The position numbers were made by a program, and so were the translations under genes. Positions 2,557-63,061 of a stretch of 64,000 nucleotides of DNA are shown piece after piece. A model generated the notes under the pieces. It ran no database searches, was not told the origin of the DNA, and worked only from the letters and a program-made list of their open reading frames with translations. This DNA is from an uncultured delta proteobacterium (lineage in GTDB: Bacteria > Desulfobacterota > Syntrophia > Syntrophales > UBA2185), in NCBI GenBank assembly GCA_963695875.1, contig CAVOID010000014.1, positions 1-64,000 on the forward strand, given 5' to 3'. Every line of letters begins with the position of its first letter. Position 1 is the stretch's first letter.

Positions 2557-3834
2557 ATGGACATGGATATAGGAATGGTAGGTATTTTTATCGCTGCGTT
2601 GGTCATCATGGCAATCATTATCTACATCAAGGCCAACATGAAGATCTGCGAGCCCAATGAGGTGATGATCTTTTCCGGGCGGCAGTTCAAGGAGAAGGAC
2701 AAGGTAGTGGGGTACCGTGTGATCAAGGGAGGAAGAGGGTTGAAGATTCCCCTGATTGAGACGGTAAGGACCATATCGTTGAATACGATGCCCATCGAGA
2801 TGGATGTAACAGGCGCCCTCACGAGAGGGACGATTCCCGTAAATGTGAAGGCCATGGCGAATGTCAAGATCGCCGGCACGATGGAAGACGGTCTGGGGAA
2901 TGCCATCGAGAGATTCCTCGGGAAGAGCGCTACGGCCATTGCCACGACGGCCCGGGAGATCCTGGAAGGCACATTGCGCGGCATACTGGCGACGATGCAG
3001 CCGGAAGAAGCCAATGCGAACCGGATAGCACTGGCCCAGCAGGTTGCCAAAGAGGCGCGGGAGGACATGCAGAGGCTGGGGCTTGTCCTGGATACGTTCA
3101 AGATCCAGGAGATCAAGGATGACAAGGGTTATCTGGAGGCCATTGCACGGAAGAAAAACGCAGAGGTTCATCGTGATGCCAGGATTGTTGAGGCGGAATC
3201 CAATGCGGAGGCGAGCAAGAAGGAAGCGGAGGGGAAGAAGGTTGCGGAGATTGCGGACATTGAGGCCCGGCAGTCGATCGTGCAGTCGGACATGAACTTC
3301 CGGGTGCAGCAGGCGACGTGGAAGGCTGAGGCGAACCGCGCCGAGGAGAAGGCCAAGATTGCCGGTGAAATCTCCCGTATGGAGGAAACGAAGACCCTTG
3401 AGGGAAAACGGGTCGAGACCAACAAATTGAAGTATCAGGCTGAAGTCGTCATCCCCGCGGAAGCGGAGAAGGATGCCCAGCAGATGAAGGCCATCGGAGA
3501 AGCCGCCTTTACCTTTGAAGAGGGCAAGGCCAAGGCGGATGCCCTGAAGCTGCTCCGCGAACAGTGGGAACATCCGAACAGCAAGGACCTGTTCATGATC
3601 CAGCTCCTGCCGGAACTGGTAGGACATGTGTCCAAGGTCATCGCATCCAATCTCAATGTGGAAAGACTGACCGTGGTCGACGGCGGCAGCGGGAGCGGCA
3701 GTGGCGGAGGTCTCCCGCACCTCGTGGGAAACCTGGCCGGGTCTGTGAACTCCTTCTTTGAGCAGATGAAGACCCTCACAGGCCTGGATCTGGCCAAGCT
3801 GATGGAAGAGCGCTACAAGGTGTCAGCTAAATAA
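2557..3834 (+). CDS. flotillin-like SPFH/band-7 family membrane protein
   Basis: RBS AGGAGG at 2546-2551 (aggagg ttatgg ac ATG) precedes ATG 2557. N-terminal TM helix, SPFH core and a long Ala/Glu/Lys coiled-coil tail (flotillin/YqiK-like). The intact 460-aa ORF in the track starts at an upstream alternative start. Confidence 0.8.
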   Translation: MDMDIGMVGIFIAALVIMAIIIYIKANMKICEPNEVMIFSGRQFKEKDKVVGYRVIKGGRGLKIPLIETVRTISLNTMPIEMDVTGALTRGTIPVNVKAMANVKIAGTMEDGLGNAIERFLGKSATAIATTAREILEGTLRGILATMQPEEANANRIALAQQVAKEAREDMQRLGLVLDTFKIQEIKDDKGYLEAIARKKNAEVHRDARIVEAESNAEASKKEAEGKKVAEIADIEARQSIVQSDMNFRVQQATWKAEANRAEEKAKIAGEISRMEETKTLEGKRVETNKLKYQAEVVIPAEAEKDAQQMKAIGEAAFTFEEGKAKADALKLLREQWEHPNSKDLFMIQLLPELVGHVSKVIASNLNVERLTVVDGGSGSGSGGGLPHLVGNLAGSVNSFFEQMKTLTGLDLAKLMEERYKVSAK

Positions 3835-4284: not shown

Positions 4285-5726
4285 TTGCTCAAAATGAGAT
4301 GGAGAGACGGGGCTTTTCTTGAAATCCGTCTTGAAAAATCCGCCTTTACGAAAGGTGGGGGTGCGAAGCGAAAGATATTATTCGAGGCAGCTTTGAACAT
4401 TCTTATTGTCGATGATGAGCTGAACATTCGTAAGACCCTGTCGGTCTGTCTGGAAACGGAAGGGCACAATGTTGTTGCTGTCAGTAATTTTCAGGATGCC
4501 CTTTCTGAAAACACCCGCCGGTCATTTGACATGGCTTTTGTGGATCTCCGTCTCGGAATAGATAGCGGTCTCGACCTCATTCCTGCGCTTCTCGCAGGAT
4601 CACCATGGCTGAAGATAATCATAATTACAGCCTATGCATCAATTGACACAGCCGTAGAGGCAATAAAGCGTGGCGCTACGGATTATATCCCGAAACCCTT
4701 CACACCTGCCCAGGTAAAACTTGTCGTTCAGAAGGTCGCGGAGGTCCGTTCACTGGAACAGCGTATTGATGCACTCCAGTCAGATTTGAACCGCATCAAT
4801 CCCGAAGTAGACCTGACTACGACAAGCCCGGTAATGCAGCGGGCCATCGAGCTTGCCAAGACAGGTGGCCCCAACCGATGCGATCGTCCTGCTTGACGGG
4901 AGAGAACGGAACCGGGAAAAGTATTTTTGCGCGGGCAATTCATGGGTGGAGCAAACGGGCAGATATGCCTTTTGCCGAGATCTCATGCCCGGCACTTTCA
5001 GCGCGAGCTTTTAGAAAGTGAACTCTTCGGTCATATCAAAGGCGCCTTTACCGGTGCTGTGCGAGACCATTCCGGCCGGATTGCATTTTGTGAAGGAGGA
5101 ACGCTGTTTCTCGATGAGATCGGTGATCTCCCCCTCCCGGTTCAACCGAAGCTTCTACAGGTTTATCCAGGAAAGGGAATACGAACGTCTGGGTGACCAT
5201 GTCACACGCAAGGCAGATGTACGCCTGATCGCAGCCACAAATATGGATATTGAGGATGCCGTCAAGAATCACCGGTTTCGGGAAGATCTTTACTATCGGC
5301 TTAATGTGATTCAGATAGAAATCCCGCCGCTCCGGGAACGGCCCGATGATATTGTCAGTCTGGCCACGACGTTTACTTACTTTCTTCGGGAGGAGCCATC
5401 ACTGTGACTCCCAGCATTTTACCGAAGATGCTCTTCACGTTCTGCGCCGTTATTCCTGGCCGGGTAATGTCCGTGAATTAAGAAATGTCGTTGAAAGAGC
5501 CTCCATAATCTGCAAGTCAGAGTCAGTCGGGATCGAACATCTCCCGGAAAAGCTTCTGACTGCCGAAGAATACCCAAAACCAGGTGATCTTATTTCCCTT
5601 GATAAAATCGAAGAGATGCACATCCGCCGCGTCCTGGCATCGACTAAATCATTACAGGAAGCCGCTGAAATCCTCGGAGTTGATCAGGCTACACTCTGGC
5701 GGCGGCGGAAACGATATAATATCTGA
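4285..5726 (+). CDS. sigma-54-dependent response regulator (REC + AAA+ sigma54-activation + Fis-type HTH), frameshifted in assembly
   Basis: ORFs 4285-4896, 4927-5196, 5018-5407 and 5346-5726 together give ILIVDDE...receiver, GENGTGKS Walker [43 protein letters not shown]-terminal HTH. True start may be TTG 4393. Confidence 0.8.
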
Positions 5727-7983: not shown

Positions 7984-8067
7984 ATGGCTGATATCATTGT
8001 TCTTATGATCGGATTGTTTCTGATCGTCTATCTCTTTTTTGTGGTACTTCGTCCTGAAAAATTTTAA
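7984..8067 (+). CDS. kdpF: K+-transporting ATPase subunit F (27-aa hydrophobic peptide)
   Basis: ATG gct gat... encodes MADIIVLMIGLFLIVYLFFVVLRPEKF*, a typical KdpF C-terminus (LRPEKF), immediately upstream of kdpA. Confidence 0.7.
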   Translation: MADIIVLMIGLFLIVYLFFVVLRPEKF

Positions 8068-8113
8068 GTTTGCTCACAATATCTCAAGTTGCTTAAGGAT
8101 AGGAGAAGTTAAC

Positions 8114-9921
8114 ATGAACATTTATGGCTGGATTCAATTAACTGTCTTCATCGGCATCCTCCTTTTGCTGACGAAGCCGATAGGAGTTTATCTCACACAG
8201 GTTCTCGATCCTGAGGGAAAGACCTTTCTCGACCCGGTGCTTCGCCCTGTGGAAAGGCTGTTTTATCGGCTTTTCGGACTTGACCCGAAAAAGGAGCAGG
8301 CCTGGCAGGAGTATGCCCTGTCCCTTCTTGCCTTCAGTCTGGTGAGTCTTTTATTGACTTACGTTATCCTTCGCGTTCAGCATCTCCTGCCTCTGAACCC
8401 CCAGGGATTCGGACCGGTAAGCGAACACTTGGCCTTCAATACAGCGGTCAGTTTCACAACCAATACCAACTGGCAGAGCTATGGTGGAGAGTCTACTCTT
8501 TCGTATTTTTCGCAGATGGTCGGCCTTGTTTTCCACAACTTTACCTCCGCAGCCGTCGGAATTGCCGTGGCTGCCGCTCTGGTAAGGGGTATTGCCCAGC
8601 AGTACACTACCCGTACGATCGGCAATTTCTGGGTCGATCTTGTCCGTGTAAATCTTTATCTGCTGCTGCCGATCTCCCTTGTCTATGCCCTCTTTCTTGT
8701 ATCCCAGGGAATGATCCAGAATTTCAAGCCATACGATACGGCACAGCTTGTGGAACCCGCCGTCATTCAGGTCGCCAAGAAGGATACAGCAGGTCAGGAG
8801 ATCATGGATGCTCAGGGAAAGCCGGTCATGGAGGATCAAAAAGTTGAAACACAGACGATTGCGCAGGGACCGACGGCATCTCAGGTGGCGATCAAGATGC
8901 TGGGAACAAACGGCGGTGGATTCTTCAATGCCAACGCCTCTCATCCCTTTGAGAATCCGACACCGCTTTCCAATTTTTTGCAAATCCTGTCTATCTTTCT
9001 CATACCGAGCGGACTGACCTATTACCTGGGCCGGATGGTGAAGAACCAGCGGCACGGCTGGACAGTCTGGGGGGCGATGCTTGTTCTCTTTCTCGCAGGA
9101 GTCCTGACATGCTGGTGGGCGGAAGCAGCGGGAAACCCGAGGATGCATGCCTTGGGTGTGGATGCCAGTCGGAGGGCAACATGGAAGGGAAGGAAGTCCG
9201 CTTCGGGATATTCGGTTCCGCCCTCTTTGCCACCGTGACGACGGATGCCTCCTGCGGCGCCGTCAATGCGATGCACGATTCCTTTACGCCTCTGGGAGGC
9301 CTGATCCCGCTCTTCAATATGCAACTGGGCGAGGTCATCTTCGGCGGTGTAGGGGCCGGCCTTTACGGGATGCTCGTTTTCGTTTTACTGACGGTATTTT
9401 TAGCAGGACTGATGGTCGGGCGCACGCCTGAGTATCTGGGTAAAAAGATCGAGGCCTATGATGTGAAGGTCAGCGTATTGTTTGTGATGGTGCCTGTTTT
9501 TACCGTCCTGGGATTCACCGCCTGGGCGGCGGTGAGCGCCTGGGGTTTGGCCGGACTGAATAATACGGGCCCTCACGGTTTTAGCGAAATACTCTATGCC
9601 TTCTCATCGGCTGTCGGCAATAACGGCAGCGCCTTCGCCGGACTCACTACCAATACTTACTGGTACGACACAACAATGGGCATCGCCATGCTGCTGGGCC
9701 GCTTTTTCATGATCGTCCCGGTGCTGGCCCTCGCGGGCAGCCTGGCACAGAAGAGGCAGATCGCGACAAGCGGCGGCAGTTTCCCCGTTTCCGGCGTTAT
9801 GTTCGCTATTCTCCTCCTCGGCACCGTTCTCATCGTTGGCGCCCTGACGTTTCTCCCGGTACTGGCGCTGGGTCCCATTGTCGAGCATCTTTTGATGACC
9901 GGATCACAGATTATCTATTAA
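8114..9921 (+). CDS. kdpA: K+-transporting ATPase subunit A; one frameshift near 9170 (ccc to cc)
   Basis: RBS GGAG then ATG 8114, [15 protein letters not shown].... Homology continues from ORF 8039-9238 into ORF 9109-9921 at ...[12 protein letters not shown]. Confidence 0.9.
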
Positions 9922-21375: not shown

Positions 21376-21849
21376 CTAATATACCCGCGCGATAAACTCG
21401 GCAACACACGCCGGTTTCTCACTGTTCTCGATCTCTATCGTCATAATGTAGGTAATCTGTATGGCCTCGCCGATTTTCTCTGCACTTTGCAGTCTTGTCC
21501 TCGCCCTGATTAGGGAGTTGACTACAACCGGTGCGGGAAAACGCACCTTATTAAGGCCGTAATTCACCCGCATCTTCATCCCCGGGTAGTTCCTTTGAAA
21601 GTAGTCGGGGTGGTTGCTCTCGGTAAGGTAAGGAAGGAGGGACAGCGTCAGAAATCCGTGGGCGATGGTTGCCCTGTAAGGAGATTCCCTTTTCGCCCTA
21701 TCAGGGTCGGTGTGTATCCATTGGCGATCGCCAGTCACCTCTGCGAAGCGGTCGATCCGCTCCTGATCAACCATCAGCCAGAGGCCGACATGGATTTCAG
21801 TGCCGATCTTCGGCCGCAAAAATATAAGTAACTTATCGGATGCTGACAT
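21376..21849 (-). CDS. MaoC-like (R)-specific enoyl-CoA hydratase / hot-dog fold dehydratase
   Basis: 157-aa ORF with the ...FAEVTGDRQWIHTDPDRAKRESPYRATIAHGFLTLSLL... hot-dog motif. Confidence 0.8.
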   Translation of the reverse strand: MSASDKLLIFLRPKIGTEIHVGLWLMVDQERIDRFAEVTGDRQWIHTDPDRAKRESPYRATIAHGFLTLSLLPYLTESNHPDYFQRNYPGMKMRVNYGLNKVRFPAPVVVNSLIRARTRLQSAEKIGEAIQITYIMTIEIENSEKPACVAEFIARVY

Positions 21850-21963
21850 AATGCCTCCTGTAACTAACCTGCAAAATTAAGCATGTCATTTCGAAGGAAC
21901 AAAGTTACTGAAAAATATTCGATATCTTCAGATAAGATTTTCCTCTTCGATAGAAATTACATA

Positions 21964-22113
21964 ATTGAAGCTCTCCATAGTAGACTACGGAGAAGCTTCG
22001 ATCCACAAGGAATAATAATGTTCCCCATTCGCTCGCTTACCCCGCAGCAAGCTACGGGGAATGCGCTCACTGCCGGATTCGAACTCCGTAAAGTTAGCAC
22101 TCGCCGCAAGTAA
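21964..22113 (+). repeat. copy 1 of a ~120-bp intergenic module (hairpin + SD + 31-codon mini-ORF MFPIRSLTPQQ...)
   Basis: Shares attgaagctctcc...cggagaa.cttcgatccacaaggaataataatgttccccattcgctcgcttaccccgcagcaagc...gcgctc.ctgccggattc with 38498-38620. Lies 5' of icd on the same strand. Confidence 0.7.
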
Positions 22114-22168
22114 AATCATAAACTCGACTCCTATGGACATGCAACCTCCTTTATGATAGAAACAAAAT

Positions 22169-23422
22169 ATGAAATCTTCAAGCAGGAAAACAGTGCCGCT
22201 CACGGATAAGATAAAGGTCAAGAATACCATCGTCGAGATAGATGGTGATGAAATGACTAGAATCATGTGGGAGATGGTCAAGGAGAAACTTCTCCTCCCC
22301 CATCTATCCATGGACATCGAATACTACGATCTTCATATCAAGAACCGTGATTACACCGATGACCAGGTCACAATCGATGCAGCCAGGGCCATTATGAGGC
22401 ATGGAGTGGGGGTCAAGTGTGCTACGATTACCCCGAATGAAGACCGTGTCAGAGAATACAATCTAAAGCAACTGTGGAAAAGTCCGAATGGGACGATCAG
22501 GGCTTTGCTTGACGGAACGGTATTCAGGAAACCGATTCTTGTAAAAAATATCCGCCCCTCCGTTTCCGCATGGAAGAGACCCATCACCATAGGACGACAT
22601 GCCTATGGCGATGTTTACGGCAATACAGAGATGCGTATAAACTCTCCCGGAAAAGCAGAGCTTGTATTCACACCCGCCGGAGGCGGCCAACCGGTCAAAC
22701 AGATCATCAAGGAATTCACGGAGCCGGGAATTATCCAGGGTATCCACAATACTGACAAATCCATAGAAAGCTTCGCAAAGGCCTGCTTCACATTTGCCCT
22801 CGATCAGAAAATCGATCTATGGTTCAGCGCCAAGGATACCATATCCAAGACCTATGACGCCCGGTTCAGGGATATATTTGAGGAGGAGTATGAGAAGAAC
22901 TGGAAGTTAAAATTTACCAAGTCAGGTCTCTCATATTTTTTTACCCTCATTGATGATGCCGTAGCCCGCATTATAAAGTCGGAAGGGGGTATCCTCTGGG
23001 CCCTCAAAAACTATGATGGCGACGTGATGTCCGACATGATAGCCTCGGCGTATGGAAGCCTTGCCATGATGACGTCTGTTCTGGTTTCACCTCGCGGGTA
23101 TTTCGAGTACGAAGCGGCCCATGGGACGGTGCAGAAACACTACTACAAGCATCTCAAAGGGGGTAGAACATCCACCAATCCTATGGCGATTATCTTCGCC
23201 TGGTCAGGATGCCTGCGCAAGCGTGGTGAACTCGATGCGACACCACAAGTTGTTTCATTTGCGGACAAACTTGAAGAATCAGCTATTTCAACAGTGAAAT
23301 CCGGGATCATGACAGGGGACCTGCTTCTTGTGGCAGACAAGAGCCCCAATAATAAGAAAGTTACTACGAAAGCATTCATCGATGCCGTTGCCGAAAACCT
23401 CCGAAAAAAATTATCCGGTTAA
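22169..23422 (+). CDS. icd: NADP-dependent isocitrate dehydrogenase (homodimeric, eukaryote-like ~410-aa type)
   Basis: Intact 417-aa ORF: [52 protein letters not shown]. Confidence 0.9.
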
Positions 23423-37714: not shown

Positions 37715-38287
37715 ATGACAGGCATTATATTAACAGGCGGGAAAAATACGAGGATGGGAACGAACAAGGCTTTCCTCGATATCAACGGAGAGCGGCTGAT
37801 CGACAGAACCGTCAGGATTTTCAAAGATCTCTTTGGGGAAATTATCCTATCCACTAACTCTCCCTTGGATTATCTTGATCATGATGCCGTAATCGTTACC
37901 GACATCATTAAAGATAAGGGCGCGCTGGGAGGAATATACACGGGTCTTTTCTTTGCCTCCCATGAGCATGCCTTTGTATCAGCCTGCGACATGCCTTTCC
38001 TGAATAAGTCATTCATCGAATACATGATCGAACATCGCGGCGATAATGATATTGTTGTGCCGAGATCCTCCGACGGTCTGCAGCCCCTCCATGCCATTTA
38101 CTCAAGACGTTGCCTTCCTGCCATTAAGAGAATCATCGACCGGGGTGAACTTAAGATCACCGGTTTTTACAAGGGATTAAAGACTCTGGAGATCCCGGAG
38201 GATGTTATTAAATCATATGATCCGGAAGAAAAGATGTTTTTTAATGTCAACACACAAAAAGATCTCGAACAGATTTCGTCACTCTGA
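37715..38287 (+). CDS. mobA: molybdenum cofactor guanylyltransferase
   Basis: GIILTGGKNTRMG...NKAFLDINGERLID N-terminal signature. Confidence 0.85.
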   Translation: MTGIILTGGKNTRMGTNKAFLDINGERLIDRTVRIFKDLFGEIILSTNSPLDYLDHDAVIVTDIIKDKGALGGIYTGLFFASHEHAFVSACDMPFLNKSFIEYMIEHRGDNDIVVPRSSDGLQPLHAIYSRRCLPAIKRIIDRGELKITGFYKGLKTLEIPEDVIKSYDPEEKMFFNVNTQKDLEQISSL

Positions 38288-38335: not shown

Positions 38336-38448
38336 TGTCATTGCGGTGAACTGAAACCCTGAGCGCAGCGTGAGGGGAAGTGAAGCAATCTCACAGCATA
38401 TTGATAATACAGCAGATTGCCACGTCGCTGGCGCTCCTCGCAATGACA
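38336..38448. repeat. REP/BIME-like palindromic elements, inverted pair (tgtcattgcgg...gcaatctc and agattgcc...cgcaatgaca)
   Basis: Same termini as elements at 47380-47409, 58443-58505 and 63013-63061. Confidence 0.5.
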
Positions 38449-38497
38449 TAATAATAGTTGTGCAAACGTTTCAAAATATAATATTTCAATTGAAGCT

Positions 38498-38647
38498 CTC
38501 CGCAGCAAACTGCGGAGAATCTTCGATCCACAAGGAATAATAATGTTCCCCATTCGCTCGCTTACCCCGCAGCAAGCGAAGGTGTTTGCGCTCGCTGCCG
38601 GATTCAACAATCTCGAGCAGGCAATTACATTTCGACCGTTCATCAAT
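38498..38647 (+). repeat. copy 2 of the ~120-bp hairpin + SD + mini-ORF module (39-codon ORF MFPIRSLTPQQAKVFALAAGF...)
   Basis: Perfect 57-bp core shared with copy 1. Hairpin ctccgcag-caaa-ctgcggag. Lies 5' of the tetR-acd-etf operon on the same strand. Confidence 0.7.
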
Positions 38648-38750
38648 CTTTTTAGGAAATAAATGTCTTGACGTCACCAAGTGGGTTTGTTATCAATAGC
38701 GTGAGAGACCGACCGGTCTGTCTGGTTATTTTAAAGGAACTTTTTCGAGG

Positions 38751-39326
38751 ATGTCAATTAAAGAGAGTATAATTCACGAGGCTTTGAAGCTCTTTTCGCT
38801 CAAGGGATTTTCCAGCACCTCCATTACCGACATTTTAGAGGCTACCGGAACGTCCAAAGGCGGCTTTTACAATCATTTCAAAAGCAAGGAAGATTTGTTT
38901 TTCGCCGTGCTTGAGCGTGCGCGGCAGATCTGGCGCGAGAAGGTACTAACTGATCTGGACAAGGTGGAGCCGCCGCTTGATAAAATCTGCAAGCTATTGG
39001 AAAACTATCGCGACCTGTATCTCATCGATTCGGAGAACATCCCCGGAGGATGCATCTTTATTAACCTTGCCGTGGAGCTTGCCGACAAGTATCCCCACTT
39101 GGCCGACGGGGTGAATCAAGGCTTTTCGGGATTCAAAACGATGGTAAACAATTTTTTGAATGACGCAAAGAAACAAGGTGTCTTAAAGGGAGATACGTCG
39201 ACCGAGGCTATGACCGAGATGGTGTTTGCCAGCATGCTGGGGGCTTCCGTGATGTACAGCGTGGATAAATCTACCGAAAATTTACAGCGTACCATCGGCG
39301 CCATCATTCAGTATCTGCACACCTAA
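38751..39326 (+). CDS. TetR-family transcriptional regulator
   Basis: N-terminal HTH LFSLKGFSSTSITDILEATGTSKGGFYNHFKSKEDL. Confidence 0.85.
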   Translation: MSIKESIIHEALKLFSLKGFSSTSITDILEATGTSKGGFYNHFKSKEDLFFAVLERARQIWREKVLTDLDKVEPPLDKICKLLENYRDLYLIDSENIPGGCIFINLAVELADKYPHLADGVNQGFSGFKTMVNNFLNDAKKQGVLKGDTSTEAMTEMVFASMLGASVMYSVDKSTENLQRTIGAIIQYLHT

Positions 39327-46417: not shown

Positions 46418-47366
46418 ATGGCTGGAGTCTGGATTATTTCGGAAAACCGTGAGCAAGCCCTGGAACTTTTAATATTGGCCGCGAACTTGCCGAGAAGATG
46501 GGAACGAACGTTTCCGCGCTTCTCTCGCAGGATCGTGAACGGGCGCAAGACTATATCGAAGCACGGAGCGGACGAGGTTCTGATTCTGCCCCCTCTTGCC
46601 GGTGATCAGTCCATAGATGCTTACATCCCCATTATCGTTGAAGAGGCAAAAAAAGATGATCCTGATTTGATCCTTATACCCGCCACAGCGAGAGGAAAGG
46701 ACATGGCCGCCCGCATCGCATCCCGCCTGGACACAGGCCTATGCAGCAGTTGTATGTCCATTGCCTTTGATGAGGCAAGCAAAACTTTGGTGATGGAGCG
46801 TCTGGCATACGGAGGCGCTGCCGTGCAGAAGGTGATCTGCACCACCCGGCCCGCGATGGCCACCATCCCGCCGCGGACATATGAGCCTGCCATGGCAGAG
46901 GAAGGACGGCAAGGACAGATTCGGGAGCTCCCGGCACCTCCCCCCTCAGCGGTAAAGGTCCTGGAGAGAAAGGTAAAAGAACGGGTAGCGAAAGACATTA
47001 CGGAGGCACGGGTTATTGTCTGTGTGGGAAGAGGTATGGAGAAGAAGCGAGGATCTGGCTCTTGCCCGGCAGTTGGCTGAGGCCCTGGGCGGCGAAATCG
47101 CCTGCACGCGGCCGATTGCCGAGGAGTATCACTGGCTGCCCGAAGAACTCTGCATCGGGCTTTCCGGCGTGCAGGTGAAACCTGATCTTTATTTAGGCAT
47201 CGGTGTTTCCGGACAGGTCCAGCATGTCACCGGTATCCGCAATGCCAAGGTGATCGCTGCCGTGAACAAAGATGAGAATGCCCCCATTTTCAAAGCCGCC
47301 GACTTCGGCATCGTCGGCGATCTCTATGACGTGCTGCCAAAACTTATTACCGAGTTAAAAAAGTGA
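46418..47366 (+). CDS. electron-transfer flavoprotein alpha subunit, second copy (frameshifts)
   Basis: MAGVWIISENREQALELL... C-terminal FAD motif PDLYLGIGVSGQVQHVTGIRNAKVIAAVNKDENAPIF. Confidence 0.8.
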
Positions 47367-47379
47367 AGATGGTCTTTTC

Positions 47380-47409
47380 TGTCATTGCGAACGATTGAAG
47401 AGATTGCAA
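47380..47409. repeat. REP-like element (tgtcattgcga ... gagattgcaat)
   Basis: Shares termini with the 38336, 58443 and 63013 elements. Confidence 0.4.
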
Positions 47410-47434
47410 TCCGACGAACTCGCAGATAGAAGGA

Positions 47435-48121
47435 TTGAATCATTTGACTGGCCGCAAACCATTTGTCGTCGTTGGCGTTGACCTGGCCGGGTCTGTGCAC
47501 CGTCCGTCTGGCATATGCATACTCCGTGGCCTGAAGGCCGAGACGCACATTGCCTTCAGCGACGAAGAAATTCTTCAGTGGGTCTCCCAGGCCCAGCCCG
47601 ACCTCGTTCCCATCGATGCACCGCTCAGCCTCCCCAAGGGGCGGATGACGATCCATGACCGCTCGGGTGGACATTTCCGCGATTGCGACTATGAGCTGAA
47701 GCGGCGCGGCATCCGTTTCTTCCCCATCACCCTCGGTCCGATGCGGATGTTGACCGAGCGCGGCATTGCGCTCAAAGCGAAGATAGAAGTGATGGGGTAC
47801 CGCGTGGTGGAGTGCTACCCCGGGGCGGCGCAGCATCTGTGGGGAATTCCCCGCCAGCACCGGGATCGCGCAGGCCTTCTGGCCGGACTCAGAGAACTGG
47901 GAGTGAAAGGATTGCCGGAGGCTCTGACCGGCGACGAACTGGACGCGGTGACTGCGGCCCTGGTCGGCCGGTGGTTTCTCCAAGGGAAGGGGGAACTGAT
48001 CGGCGGCGATGATGGGATCGTTATCCCTTCCGTACACCGACGAGGAGAGAGGAGCTCAACCCTGACAGACACAGCCCATGATCCGGCGGTACAGAAGAAA
48101 CTCCGGACAGTGTTGCCATGA
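47435..48121 (+). CDS. DUF429-family protein (predicted RNase-H-like fold), GC-rich (~62%) compared with its surroundings
   Basis: VVGVDLAGS...PDLVPIDAPLSLP pattern, typical of the DUF429 N-terminus. GC content is visibly higher than flanking genes. Confidence 0.55.
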   Translation: MNHLTGRKPFVVVGVDLAGSVHRPSGICILRGLKAETHIAFSDEEILQWVSQAQPDLVPIDAPLSLPKGRMTIHDRSGGHFRDCDYELKRRGIRFFPITLGPMRMLTERGIALKAKIEVMGYRVVECYPGAAQHLWGIPRQHRDRAGLLAGLRELGVKGLPEALTGDELDAVTAALVGRWFLQGKGELIGGDDGIVIPSVHRRGERSSTLTDTAHDPAVQKKLRTVLP

Positions 48122-48704
48122 CGGGCGCCGCTCCCGAAGGAGCTGCAAACCGGGCAGGTCTCCCCGGATAAGAACGTGAACTGTCGCTACACAACCGCAG
48201 CATTTACCCTATCTCCCGAATCCAGGGCTTTGTCATGTTGTGCTGACTTGCCCGGAGACTGGGCCTTGTATGCTGTTTCTGTTCGTCGGCTCATAGCTTT
48301 GCGCTCCGGCTTCCTTCGGACGGTCCCTCGCGGTTCCGCCCTTGCCTTCGGCTAGTACTTGTGTCAATGTATCATGACATTGACAGGATTCACGTACAGG
48401 GGACTTTCACCCCATAAGTTCACGCCCATGCCGGGCGTACACATAATCACTTCAGCGGATGGCCAATAGCCGCCGCTGATTTTTTCGCCAGACCAGATAG
48501 CCACGAGGAATTACCATGCATACACAGACTTACCTGAAGACATTTTGGTACCTTGAACAGCGACCCCAAGTATTTGTAGCCATGAGTTTTGCACCTCAGT
48601 ACAGCAATCCTTTCAATCAAGTTATGTCCTTCGGCTAATCAATCGCCAGTCTGCACTCCAATTAGCAGTGGGCTATCAAAAATAAGAAAAAGGTGGGAGG
48701 AAGA

Positions 48705-63012: not shown

Positions 63013-63061
63013 GTCATTACGATATGAGATTGCCGCGGAGCTAAAGCTCCTCGCAATGACA
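63013..63061. repeat. REP-like element (gagattgccgcggagc-taaa-gctcctcgcaatgaca) with partial inverted copy
   Basis: Palindromic; located between nadC and valS. Confidence 0.4.

Follow-up and report, generated by a model that had tools for sequence, protein, structure and literature searches.

Two short intergenic modules in a 64,000-nt stretch of DNA from an uncultured Syntrophales bacterium (the whole stretch is called the window below), one upstream of icd and the other upstream of a tetR-acd-etf operon, are with a probability of roughly 0.85 copies of a transposase-less, dispersed mobile repeat of 119 nt that belongs to an uncultured Syntrophales lineage. The repeat is a selfish, MITE/PATE-like element that does not serve to control icd or the tetR operon. 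Its mobility is supported by its presence at many unrelated intergenic sites, by sharp ends, by the lack of an orientation preference and by presence/absence polymorphism among relatives. That the two modules share a hairpin, an AAGGA-N7-ATG and identical first 12 codons is due to recent descent from a master copy rather than to selection at icd and tetR.

A direct-repeat scan of the window paired 21963-22080 with 38488-38605 (118 nt, 90% identical), and the alignment of 55 copies refined these limits to two units of 119 nt that are about 90% identical (Table 1). Pairwise alignment bore out the first-pass annotation in that both copies lie on the + strand and share a perfect 57-nt core; the AAGGA-N7-ATG and the mini-ORFs of 31 and 39 codons are also as it had described them. 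The icd ATG follows 87 nt after the end of copy 1, and the tetR ATG 143 nt after the end of copy 2. Both mini-ORFs run out of the repeat, at 22082 and 38607, respectively, and in copy 1 the stop codon lies in the flanking DNA. The copy 1 frame is open upstream to 21883, which makes a 76-codon ORF.

Table 1. Coordinates of the two repeat copies, their parts and their surroundings in the window.
Feature	Position	Strand	Details
Copy 1, subtype A	21964..22082	+	nhmmer family profile, E 6.6e-39; ends from 47-50 aligned flanks
Copy 2, subtype B	38489..38607	+	nhmmer family profile, E 2.1e-41
Hairpin 1 (subterminal), copy 1	21966..22000		consensus fold; outer stem TGAAG/CTTCG, loop TAGA
Hairpin 1 (subterminal), copy 2	38491..38525		copy 2 fold; outer stem and perfect inner 9-bp stem TCTCCGCAG-CAAA-CTGCGGAGA
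Hairpin 2 (subterminal), copy 1 (subtype A)	22040..22059		CCCCGCAG-CAAG-CTACGGGG
Alternative 3' hairpin, copy 2 (subtype B)	38569..38598		copy 2 fold; GCAGCAAGCG...CGCTCGCTGC
Shine-Dalgarno-like site and mini-ORF, copy 1	22007..22113	+	AAGGA 22007-22011; mini-ORF 22018-22113 (MFPIRSLTPQQATGNALTAGFELRKVSTRRK), 31 codons
Shine-Dalgarno-like site and mini-ORF, copy 2	38532..38662	+	AAGGA 38532-38536; mini-ORF 38543-38662, 39 codons
MaoC-like dehydratase, neighbour of copy 1	21376..21849	-	Pfam
icd, isocitrate dehydrogenase, neighbour of copy 1	22169..23422	+	Pfam
MobA-like NTP transferase, neighbour of copy 2	37715..38287	+	Pfam
tetR, neighbour of copy 2	38751..39326	+	Pfam
Acyl-CoA dehydrogenase, neighbour of copy 2		+	Pfam
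icd-proximal motif	22122..22160	+	ctcgactcctatggacatgcaacctcctttatgatag; downstream of copy 1, outside the repeat
Putative tetR promoter	38668..38696	+	TTGACG 38668-38673, 17-nt spacer, TATCAA 38691-38696
Conserved operator-like sequence	38706..38723	+	AGACCGACCGGTCTGTCT; downstream of copy 2, outside the repeat

Within the 64-kb window the repeat occurs only twice, which by itself would fit a local segmental duplication that happened by chance or only once. A 41-nt piece of the core is found at these two sites only, and 0 of 100 shuffles matched the pair. Using the 24-mer CAAGGAATAATAATGTTCCCCATT from the core as a probe, we found exact matches in 52 further contigs from wetland, peat and sediment metagenomes (loci labelled L), where the flanks are unrelated, and a local duplication therefore has no probability left. 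The two window copies are thus far from the only ones, and the many copies point to mobility, not to regulation. After removal of orthologous duplicates, the 52 loci and the window hold at least 45 distinct repeat sites. The same 24-mer has 0 matches in 185,579 species-representative genomes, a set in which the host lineage is not represented; the closest relatives of the window icd protein, at 89%, 83% and 79% identity, come from Syntrophales/Syntrophaceae MAGs, with Smithella among the next-best bacterial matches. A literature search found no described Syntrophales MITE or similar repeat.

A profile search of the window and the loci gave 56 hits at 80 bits or more, including a diverged copy (L029:5417-5533) that was caught by the profile and not ascertained through the 24-mer. 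The 44 full-length copies (alignment A2) have a mean column identity of 93% over 119 nt, a figure that permits no judgement on the conservation of the repeat centre, since the copies were sampled through the exact 24-mer. The copies share the sharp ends ATTGAAGC...GGATTCAA: in an anchored alignment of 55 copies the flanks are unrelated directly outside ATTGAAGC...GGATTCA(A), and the consensus reads ATTGAAGCTCTCCGCAGTAAACTGCGGAGAATCTTCGATCCACAAGGAATAATAATGTTCCCCATTCGCTCGCTTACCCCGCAGCAAGCTACGGGGAATGCGCTCGCTGCCGGATTCAA. One metagenome contig, L133, begins exactly at a repeat end, as is seen at an assembly break. Two subtypes differ across a 10-12-nt segment of the 3' part, namely subtype A with ...GCTACGGGGAAT..., which includes copy 1, and subtype B with ...GCGAAGGTGTTT..., which includes copy 2; a string classifier assigned 31 copies to A and 13 to B and left 11 unclassified. 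At one orthologous site the subtypes are swapped (L039 versus L046:7480). Variant forms are also present. Some copies are 5'-truncated, three separate loci (L031, L033, L044) carry an 85-nt form that has lost 34 nt between two CGCTCGCT direct repeats, and L016 holds a 65-nt derivative with perfect 15-bp inverted ends, TTGAATCCGGCAGCG.

The arrangement upstream of two metabolic operons had led to the proposal of a leader peptide or attenuator, in which translation of MFPIRSLTPQQA... would set alternative hairpins and so control the icd and tetR-acd-etf operons. The well-spaced AAGGA-N7-ATG speaks for it, as does the fact that both window copies face the downstream gene; moreover, as read from the sequence, CTGCGGAG has two potential pairing partners, CTCCGCAG upstream and CCCCGCAG downstream. 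Across the family, however, the downstream gene is read in the same direction as the repeat in 25 of the 45 scorable copies and in the opposite direction in 20. Judged by crude long-ORF calls, every copy sits between long ORFs, with neighbours oriented -/+ in 11 cases, -/- in 9, +/+ in 8 and +/- in 4.

The mini-ORF itself is decaying and not maintained. There is no stop in its frame within the repeat, so that the mini-ORF of each copy terminates in its own flank, and its length ranges from 5 to 86 codons over 55 copies. The first 12 residues are kept in only 27 of these; premature stops at codon 6 or 11 occur in five copies, frameshifting indels in at least nine, and the 34-nt deletion at three loci adds to the damage. 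At codon positions 1, 2 and 3, respectively, 6, 9 and 4 sites vary in at least three copies (positions recounted by hand), making the third position the least variable. Given this codon-position pattern, the frameshifts and the premature stops, we rejected the mini-ORF as a coding sequence. Many of its changes are CpG transitions. When the translated + frame was compared with 5.8 billion proteins, only 22 hypothetical ORFs of 30-72 aa were recovered, and none of these proteins was a long one with the mini-ORF as its N-terminus, as might be expected of a parent transposase.

Comparison with relatives shows that several of them lack the repeat at one or the other locus. The MobA-tetR spacer measures 463 nt with the repeat in the window and in L144 (TetR 96% identical), and 101-158 nt without it in L135 (TetR 97%), L145 (95%), L136 (92%) and L142 (90%). 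Similarly, the profile finds no repeat at E<=10 near icd in L053, L054 and L055, the genomes with the closest icd proteins (the three MAGs at 89%, 83% and 79%); MaoC is retained upstream of icd in L053 and L054, and another gene takes its place in L055. On the MaoC side, relatives at 99-100% identity (L134, L146) carry the repeat and the next relatives are at 86% or below. A third site, the flank of L003, is found without the repeat in L019 (95% identical), where the spacer has diverged. The empty relatives have TTTA or CTCA at the position aligned to TTCA, and their spacers are too diverged for a base-exact empty site to be recovered; an all-against-all BLAST of joined flanks likewise gave no hit across a junction.

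Conserved blocks at both loci lie downstream of the repeat. The block GACCGACCGGTCTGTCTG does not differ between the window, L144, L135 and L145, of which L135 and L145 lack the repeat, and a -35-like box containing TTGAC is kept in the same four aligned sequences. Together, positions 38668-38723 form a putative tetR promoter and operator. The icd-proximal motif, read by eye in the upstream sequences, is also retained in the repeat-less L053, L054 and L055, and may be promoter- or operator-like as well. A scan of both regions detected no terminator-like site in either and no promoter-like site inside the repeat. The first-pass suggestion of a small mobile, MITE-like promoter/UTR module therefore holds in its first half, with at least 45 sites, sharp ends, presence/absence polymorphism and independence of orientation, and fails in its second, because no promoter is found inside the repeat and the tetR promoter/operator-like block and the icd-proximal motif, both conserved, are downstream of it. 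For the attenuator, with an ORF that is not conserved, no terminator, 20 of 45 copies with the next gene on the opposite strand and syntenic relatives that do without the module, only a very slight probability remains.

Hairpin 1, at consensus positions 3-37 (35 nt), is real in both window copies and longer than first described, as an outer TGAAG/CTTCG stem adds to the inner 9-bp stem. In copy 1 the inner stem TCTCCATAG/CTACGGAGA has one A.C mismatch; the change that had been called partially compensatory is indeed so, consisting of C-G to T-A at one pair with the mismatch at another. The hairpin of L040, the copy-1 locus from another sample, is perfect, and the mismatch is thus specific to the window sequence. 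The consensus folds into three parts, an extended left-end hairpin, a small hairpin that sequesters the Shine-Dalgarno sequence against the start codon, and a 3' hairpin that depends on the subtype: type A has CCCCGCAG-CAAG-CTACGGGG there, type B GCAGCAAGCG...CGCTCGCTGC. In the fold of copy 2, hairpin 2 is missing, and the loop of the alternative 3' hairpin is the very segment that distinguishes the subtypes. In copy 1, ggattcgaactcc resembles a tRNA T-arm, a lead that was abandoned since the likeness is absent from copy 2 and from the consensus; a tRNA/tmRNA scan found none.

Such folding could suggest a multi-copy structured RNA or a host-domesticated REP-like element whose copies are kept by selection, and a structured cis-regulatory RNA was among the earlier proposals. 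The hairpins of such a transcript would influence RNA stability or processing, or a host protein would bind them. In favour of this, both strands, folded as RNA, do far better than shuffles (z -3.45 on the + strand, -4.85 on the - strand), the location is exclusively intergenic, and a few copies keep their hairpins by double changes. Hairpin 1 has two independent compensatory events, one at the copy-1 locus common to the window, L040 and L134 and one in L022. For hairpin 2A the alignment shows a single event, in L021, and pairing in hairpin 2 is improved in three diverged variants (L025, the L016 derivative and the second copy in L029, at 5417-5534). Yet insertions into genes would be removed by purifying selection, which predicts an intergenic location just as well. 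Stem pairing amounts to 85-97% across 44 copies, with 96.7% of cells paired in hairpin 1 and 90.5% in the alternative 3' hairpin, where convincing covariation is absent and pair 82/111 is broken in 11 of the 44 copies. The changes are mostly one-sided or disruptive, and the RNAalifold covariation term is -0.45 kcal/mol, negligible for the three candidate helices tested. None of the Rfam 15 covariance models reached its gathering score on the repeat. With the limit relaxed to E<=10, the only hits were two to eukaryotic models, both at the level of chance: one overlaps nt 1-17 of copy 2, the other falls in DNA flanking copy 1. Copies with truncations or internal deletions have survived, and a promoter or terminator of its own is not found inside the repeat. 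We consider conservation of a structured RNA by selection improbable. The hairpin pattern fits a property that a master copy would need in order to spread, rather than maintenance locus by locus.

How a selfish mobile repeat of this kind would move can be approached from its ends. They form a perfect inverted repeat of 5 bp, TTGAA/TTCAA, which continues imperfectly as far as about 16 nt, and TGAA (TTCA on the + strand) is found at the end in 45 of 50 copies. Over 90 boundary-offset combinations and 37 independent copies, no target-site duplication of k=2-9 was detected; the surplus of identical left and right flank k-mers over expectation stays within about 3 of 37 copies, which speaks against most MITEs of the DDE type. 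A classical MITE or small mobile repeat, whose inverted ends are recognised in trans by a DDE-type or other double-strand transposase and whose hairpins are incidental, would nevertheless account for the inverted termini (TTGAAGC.. / ..GGATTCAA), and both size and copy number are typical. The L016 derivative with its 15-bp ends is more MITE- or SMR-like than PATE-like, and SMR-A of Haloquadratum offers a precedent, being about 110 bp long with inverted terminal repeats and no target duplication (PMC3119063). Against it stand the missing duplication, which most DDE families make, the mere 5 bp of perfect terminal repeat, and the similar, directly oriented internal hairpins that recognition of inverted repeats leaves unexplained; in addition, the window and about 290 kb of loci yielded no matching transposon. 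We regard this route as rather unlikely.

The alternative route for a mobile repeat involves single-stranded DNA. On the window minus strand, the layout is TGAA, then TCCGGCAGCGAGCGCATT (18 nt), CCCCG..CGGGG, the core, TCTCCGCAG-TTTA-CTGCGGAGA and GCTTCAAT, so that the distances from end to hairpin are asymmetric, 18 nt and 7-8 nt. In subtype A, and only there, the two palindromes CTCCGCAG-TAAA-CTGCGGAG and CCCCGCAG-CAAG-CTACGGGG agree at 16 of 20 positions in direct orientation. At the hairpin-1 end, as read from the consensus, CGAAG 5' of the foot can pair with the terminal CTTCA; the same reading reveals no evident guide/cleavage pairing at the hairpin-2 end. These features are compatible with mobilisation in trans by an HUH/Y1 transposase of the IS200/IS605 or RAYT type, with the window minus strand as the top strand. 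Bound to the two similar subterminal hairpins, the enzyme would cleave twice, on the left behind a TGAA-type target and on the right behind the TCAA(T) end. A circle would be released and would integrate 3' of a further TGAA, with no duplication of the target. Any influence on icd or tetR expression would be incidental. Provided that the repeat is mobile, we offer this mechanism tentatively, by analogy with known systems, as a possibility somewhat short of even odds.

The search for an enzyme was extended to the neighbourhood of the copies. Pfam detected no transposase among the 20 window ORFs, and neither the window nor about 290 kb of loci contained an autonomous IS with matching termini. 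An IS605-type transposon (tnpA/tnpB) with similar palindromes and a RAYT gene were likewise not seen in the window and the loci examined. Two ORFs were considered as transposases and rejected by reading: one in L011 that abuts a 5'-truncated copy looks, from its HKD motif, to be of the phospholipase-D/cardiolipin-synthase type, and one in L016 between a full and a partial copy looks to be of the ferredoxin/nitroreductase type.

A bacterial PATE that has been partly co-opted by its host, as a portable SD-ATG translation-start cassette whose frame stays open through the right end or as a trans-acting hairpin RNA (e.g. guide-like for an IS605-type TnpB encoded elsewhere in the genome), is very unlikely to be right. 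If it were, the cassette would create new small proteins or N-terminal extensions at each landing site, and the A/B switch at L039 versus L046:7480 would represent active exchange between copies. For the selfish repeat, the practical consequences are more immediate. A conserved hairpin with a Shine-Dalgarno sequence and an ATG upstream of two metabolic operons looks regulatory and is a selfish repeat, which calls for caution. Annotation pipelines call spurious 'genes' of 30-81 aa on it, and it breaks short-read assemblies of this Syntrophales lineage. Should the IS200/IS605-type mechanism be true, the repeat would be a PATE of a bacterial, anaerobic syntroph, of a class described in haloarchaea (PMC3119063), and would provide a compact substrate, two hairpins in 119 nt, for studies of single-strand transposition.

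Several families of bacterial repeats invite comparison. Neisseria Correia elements, enterobacterial ERIC and pneumococcal RUP and BOX are about 100-150 bp long, have tens to hundreds of intergenic copies and form stable hairpins; they often adjoin promoters and can be mistaken for regulatory modules. None is known to be related to the present repeat in sequence. In Correia elements and most other MITEs the terminal inverted repeats are long and the target is duplicated (TA in the case of Correia), whereas our repeat shows neither; with classical MITEs it shares small size, absence of transposase coding and dispersal, and it departs from them in lacking a target-site duplication. REP, BIME and REPIN sequences are intergenic palindromic units without target duplication that are thought to be handled by an HUH Y1 enzyme (RAYT). 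REPINs are inverted doublets of a 20-40-nt unit, and in contrast the palindromes of the present repeat are direct and lie inside a 119-nt unit with a unique 45-nt core, with no RAYT seen in the window and loci.

Closer parallels come from Haloquadratum walsbyi and from IS608. SMR-A has prominent inverted terminal repeats unrelated to known transposons and targets palindromes of other elements (PMC3119063). The repeat resembles it in length (SMR-A is ~110 bp), in terminal inverted repeats unrelated to known transposons and in the absence of target duplication, and differs in having short inverted ends only and no visible palindrome targeting. PATEs, palindrome-associated transposable elements of H. 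walsbyi, are non-autonomous and derived from IS200/IS605; they are defined by the lack of a TSD, similar near-terminal palindromes, a length too short for a transposase, a longer 5' distance and repeat-mediated core deletions (PMC3119063). Like them, the repeat is too short for a transposase, has no target duplication, carries similar near-terminal palindromes at 18 versus 7-8 nt from its ends, consists of 'homogeneous' copies more than 90% identical, and has given rise to repeat-mediated internal deletion derivatives. Unlike them, it resides in a bacterial host (Syntrophales), has 5-bp inverted ends, lacks the second palindrome in subtype B and has no IS605-type parent with related ends among the sequences searched; a fixed 5' targeting oligonucleotide could not be told apart from the repeat, and if it is a PATE, one arm of the 5-bp inverted repeat would be the target. 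In IS608, the cleavage sites lie 19 nt from the hairpin on the left, on its 5' side, and 10 nt from the one on the right, on its 3' side, and the right end contains TCAA (PMC3201880). Comparable are the subterminal hairpins in the same orientation, the distances of 18 and 7-8 nt, the TCAA right end and, by analogy, the CGAAG/CTTCA pairing at the hairpin-1 end, which may correspond to a guide and its cleavage site. On the other hand, the repeat has no tnpA or tnpB and no evident guide/target pairing at the other end, and its target would be TGAA in place of the TTAC of IS608. The repeat has most of the structural traits of a PATE; even with the defining link to an IS605-type parent not found, it is best filed beside the bacterial MITE/PATE-type non-autonomous repeats.

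The two subtypes of the mobile element, A and B, can occupy the same site in different contigs. Two element sites in fetched contigs, L039:213-331 and L046:7480-7598, are orthologous, with a flank identity of 95-100%, and one contig carries subtype A while the other carries subtype B. About 9 differences between these copies cluster within about 20 nt, and none falls in the first 89 nt. This pattern suggests gene conversion between copies or, alternatively, re-insertion at the same site.

Other short repeats, some of them putative, occur in the window and in relatives. A second repeat family, unrelated to the 119-nt sequence, adjoins copy 2 as an inverted pair (see table), and a repeat search of the window recovered a further instance of one arm at 63027-63061 with 83% identity. 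The 9-mer GTCATTGCG/CGCAATGAC of this family occurs eight times in the window, but the fetched loci, 288 kb in all, contain only six instances. In the comparison of tetR spacers, L135 and L145, two relatives that have the tetR locus and no element, were also found to lack the inverted-repeat block. A short way upstream of copy 1, about 50 nt (window 21878-21926) match L046:7328-7378 and L046:1021-1056 at 84-89% identity; the segment is possibly another short repeat family of this lineage. The spacer between tetR and acd measures 280 nt in a further relative without the element (L142:2577-2856), compared with 5 nt in the window. The L142 spacer holds GC-rich palindromic sequence, for example CCGGACTTGATCCGG and CCGGCTCGGAGGCCGG; a further repeat has likely inserted there.

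The element also leaves its mark on assembly and annotation. The short-read Logan contig SRR35914872_719846 (L133) starts exactly with the element's final bases (ATTCAACAATCTCG...), and we therefore conclude that the element breaks assemblies of this lineage. In the element consensus one plus and two minus frames are open throughout, which invites spurious ORF calls. Gene callers report an 81-aa 'gene' in each of three contigs (see table), and in two of them, L134 and L146, the call spans the element, antisense to its mini-ORF.

Two further features of the window are of note. The ORF adjoining the group II intron RNA (47324-48037, minus strand) gave no Pfam match, and because of this the intron may have decayed or may carry no ORF. 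In the kdpA region (8039-9921), the Pfam match to KdpA in ORF 8039-9238 is confined to profile positions 2-315 of 548, and the next ORF (9109-9921) overlaps that ORF; on these grounds kdpA looks frameshifted or split, which would mean a pseudogene or else an error in the sequence.

Features located in the window and in fetched loci (L-numbers)
Feature	Location	Strand	Sequence or score
Inverted pair, second repeat family	window 38337-38448		GTCATTGCGGTGAAC...GAAGCAATCT / AGATTGCC...CTCCTCGCAATGAC
Motif matches, second repeat family	window 44488, 47381, 58409, 58497, 61943		
Group II intron domain D1-D4 RNA	window 48173-48337	-	RF02001, 137.9 bits, E 2e-28
81-aa gene-caller 'genes'	L134:823-1068; L146:541-786; L138:79-324		
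65-nt palindromic derivative (from the right part of the element)	L016, ~1222-1290 of the reverse complement (original 3437-3505)		TTGAATCCGGCAGCG-CTCACTTACCCCGCGGCAAGCCGCTGGGAATGTGCTCGCTGCCGGATTCA

Beyond full copies, the element occurs in derived and interrupted forms. The inverted ends of the 65-nt derivative are perfect over 15 bp, and its hairpin 2 is preserved via compensatory changes. A full copy is found about 870 nt away, beyond a 274-aa gene that reads as ferredoxin/nitroreductase-like. In L034 (reverse complement, 1-60), one copy has its hairpin 1 loop split by about 45 nt of inserted GC-rich sequence (CGGCTGTCCCCCGCTGGCGGGGGTTGGGGGTGGTCTCGTTCGT...), which recalls small repeats that target the palindromes of other elements.
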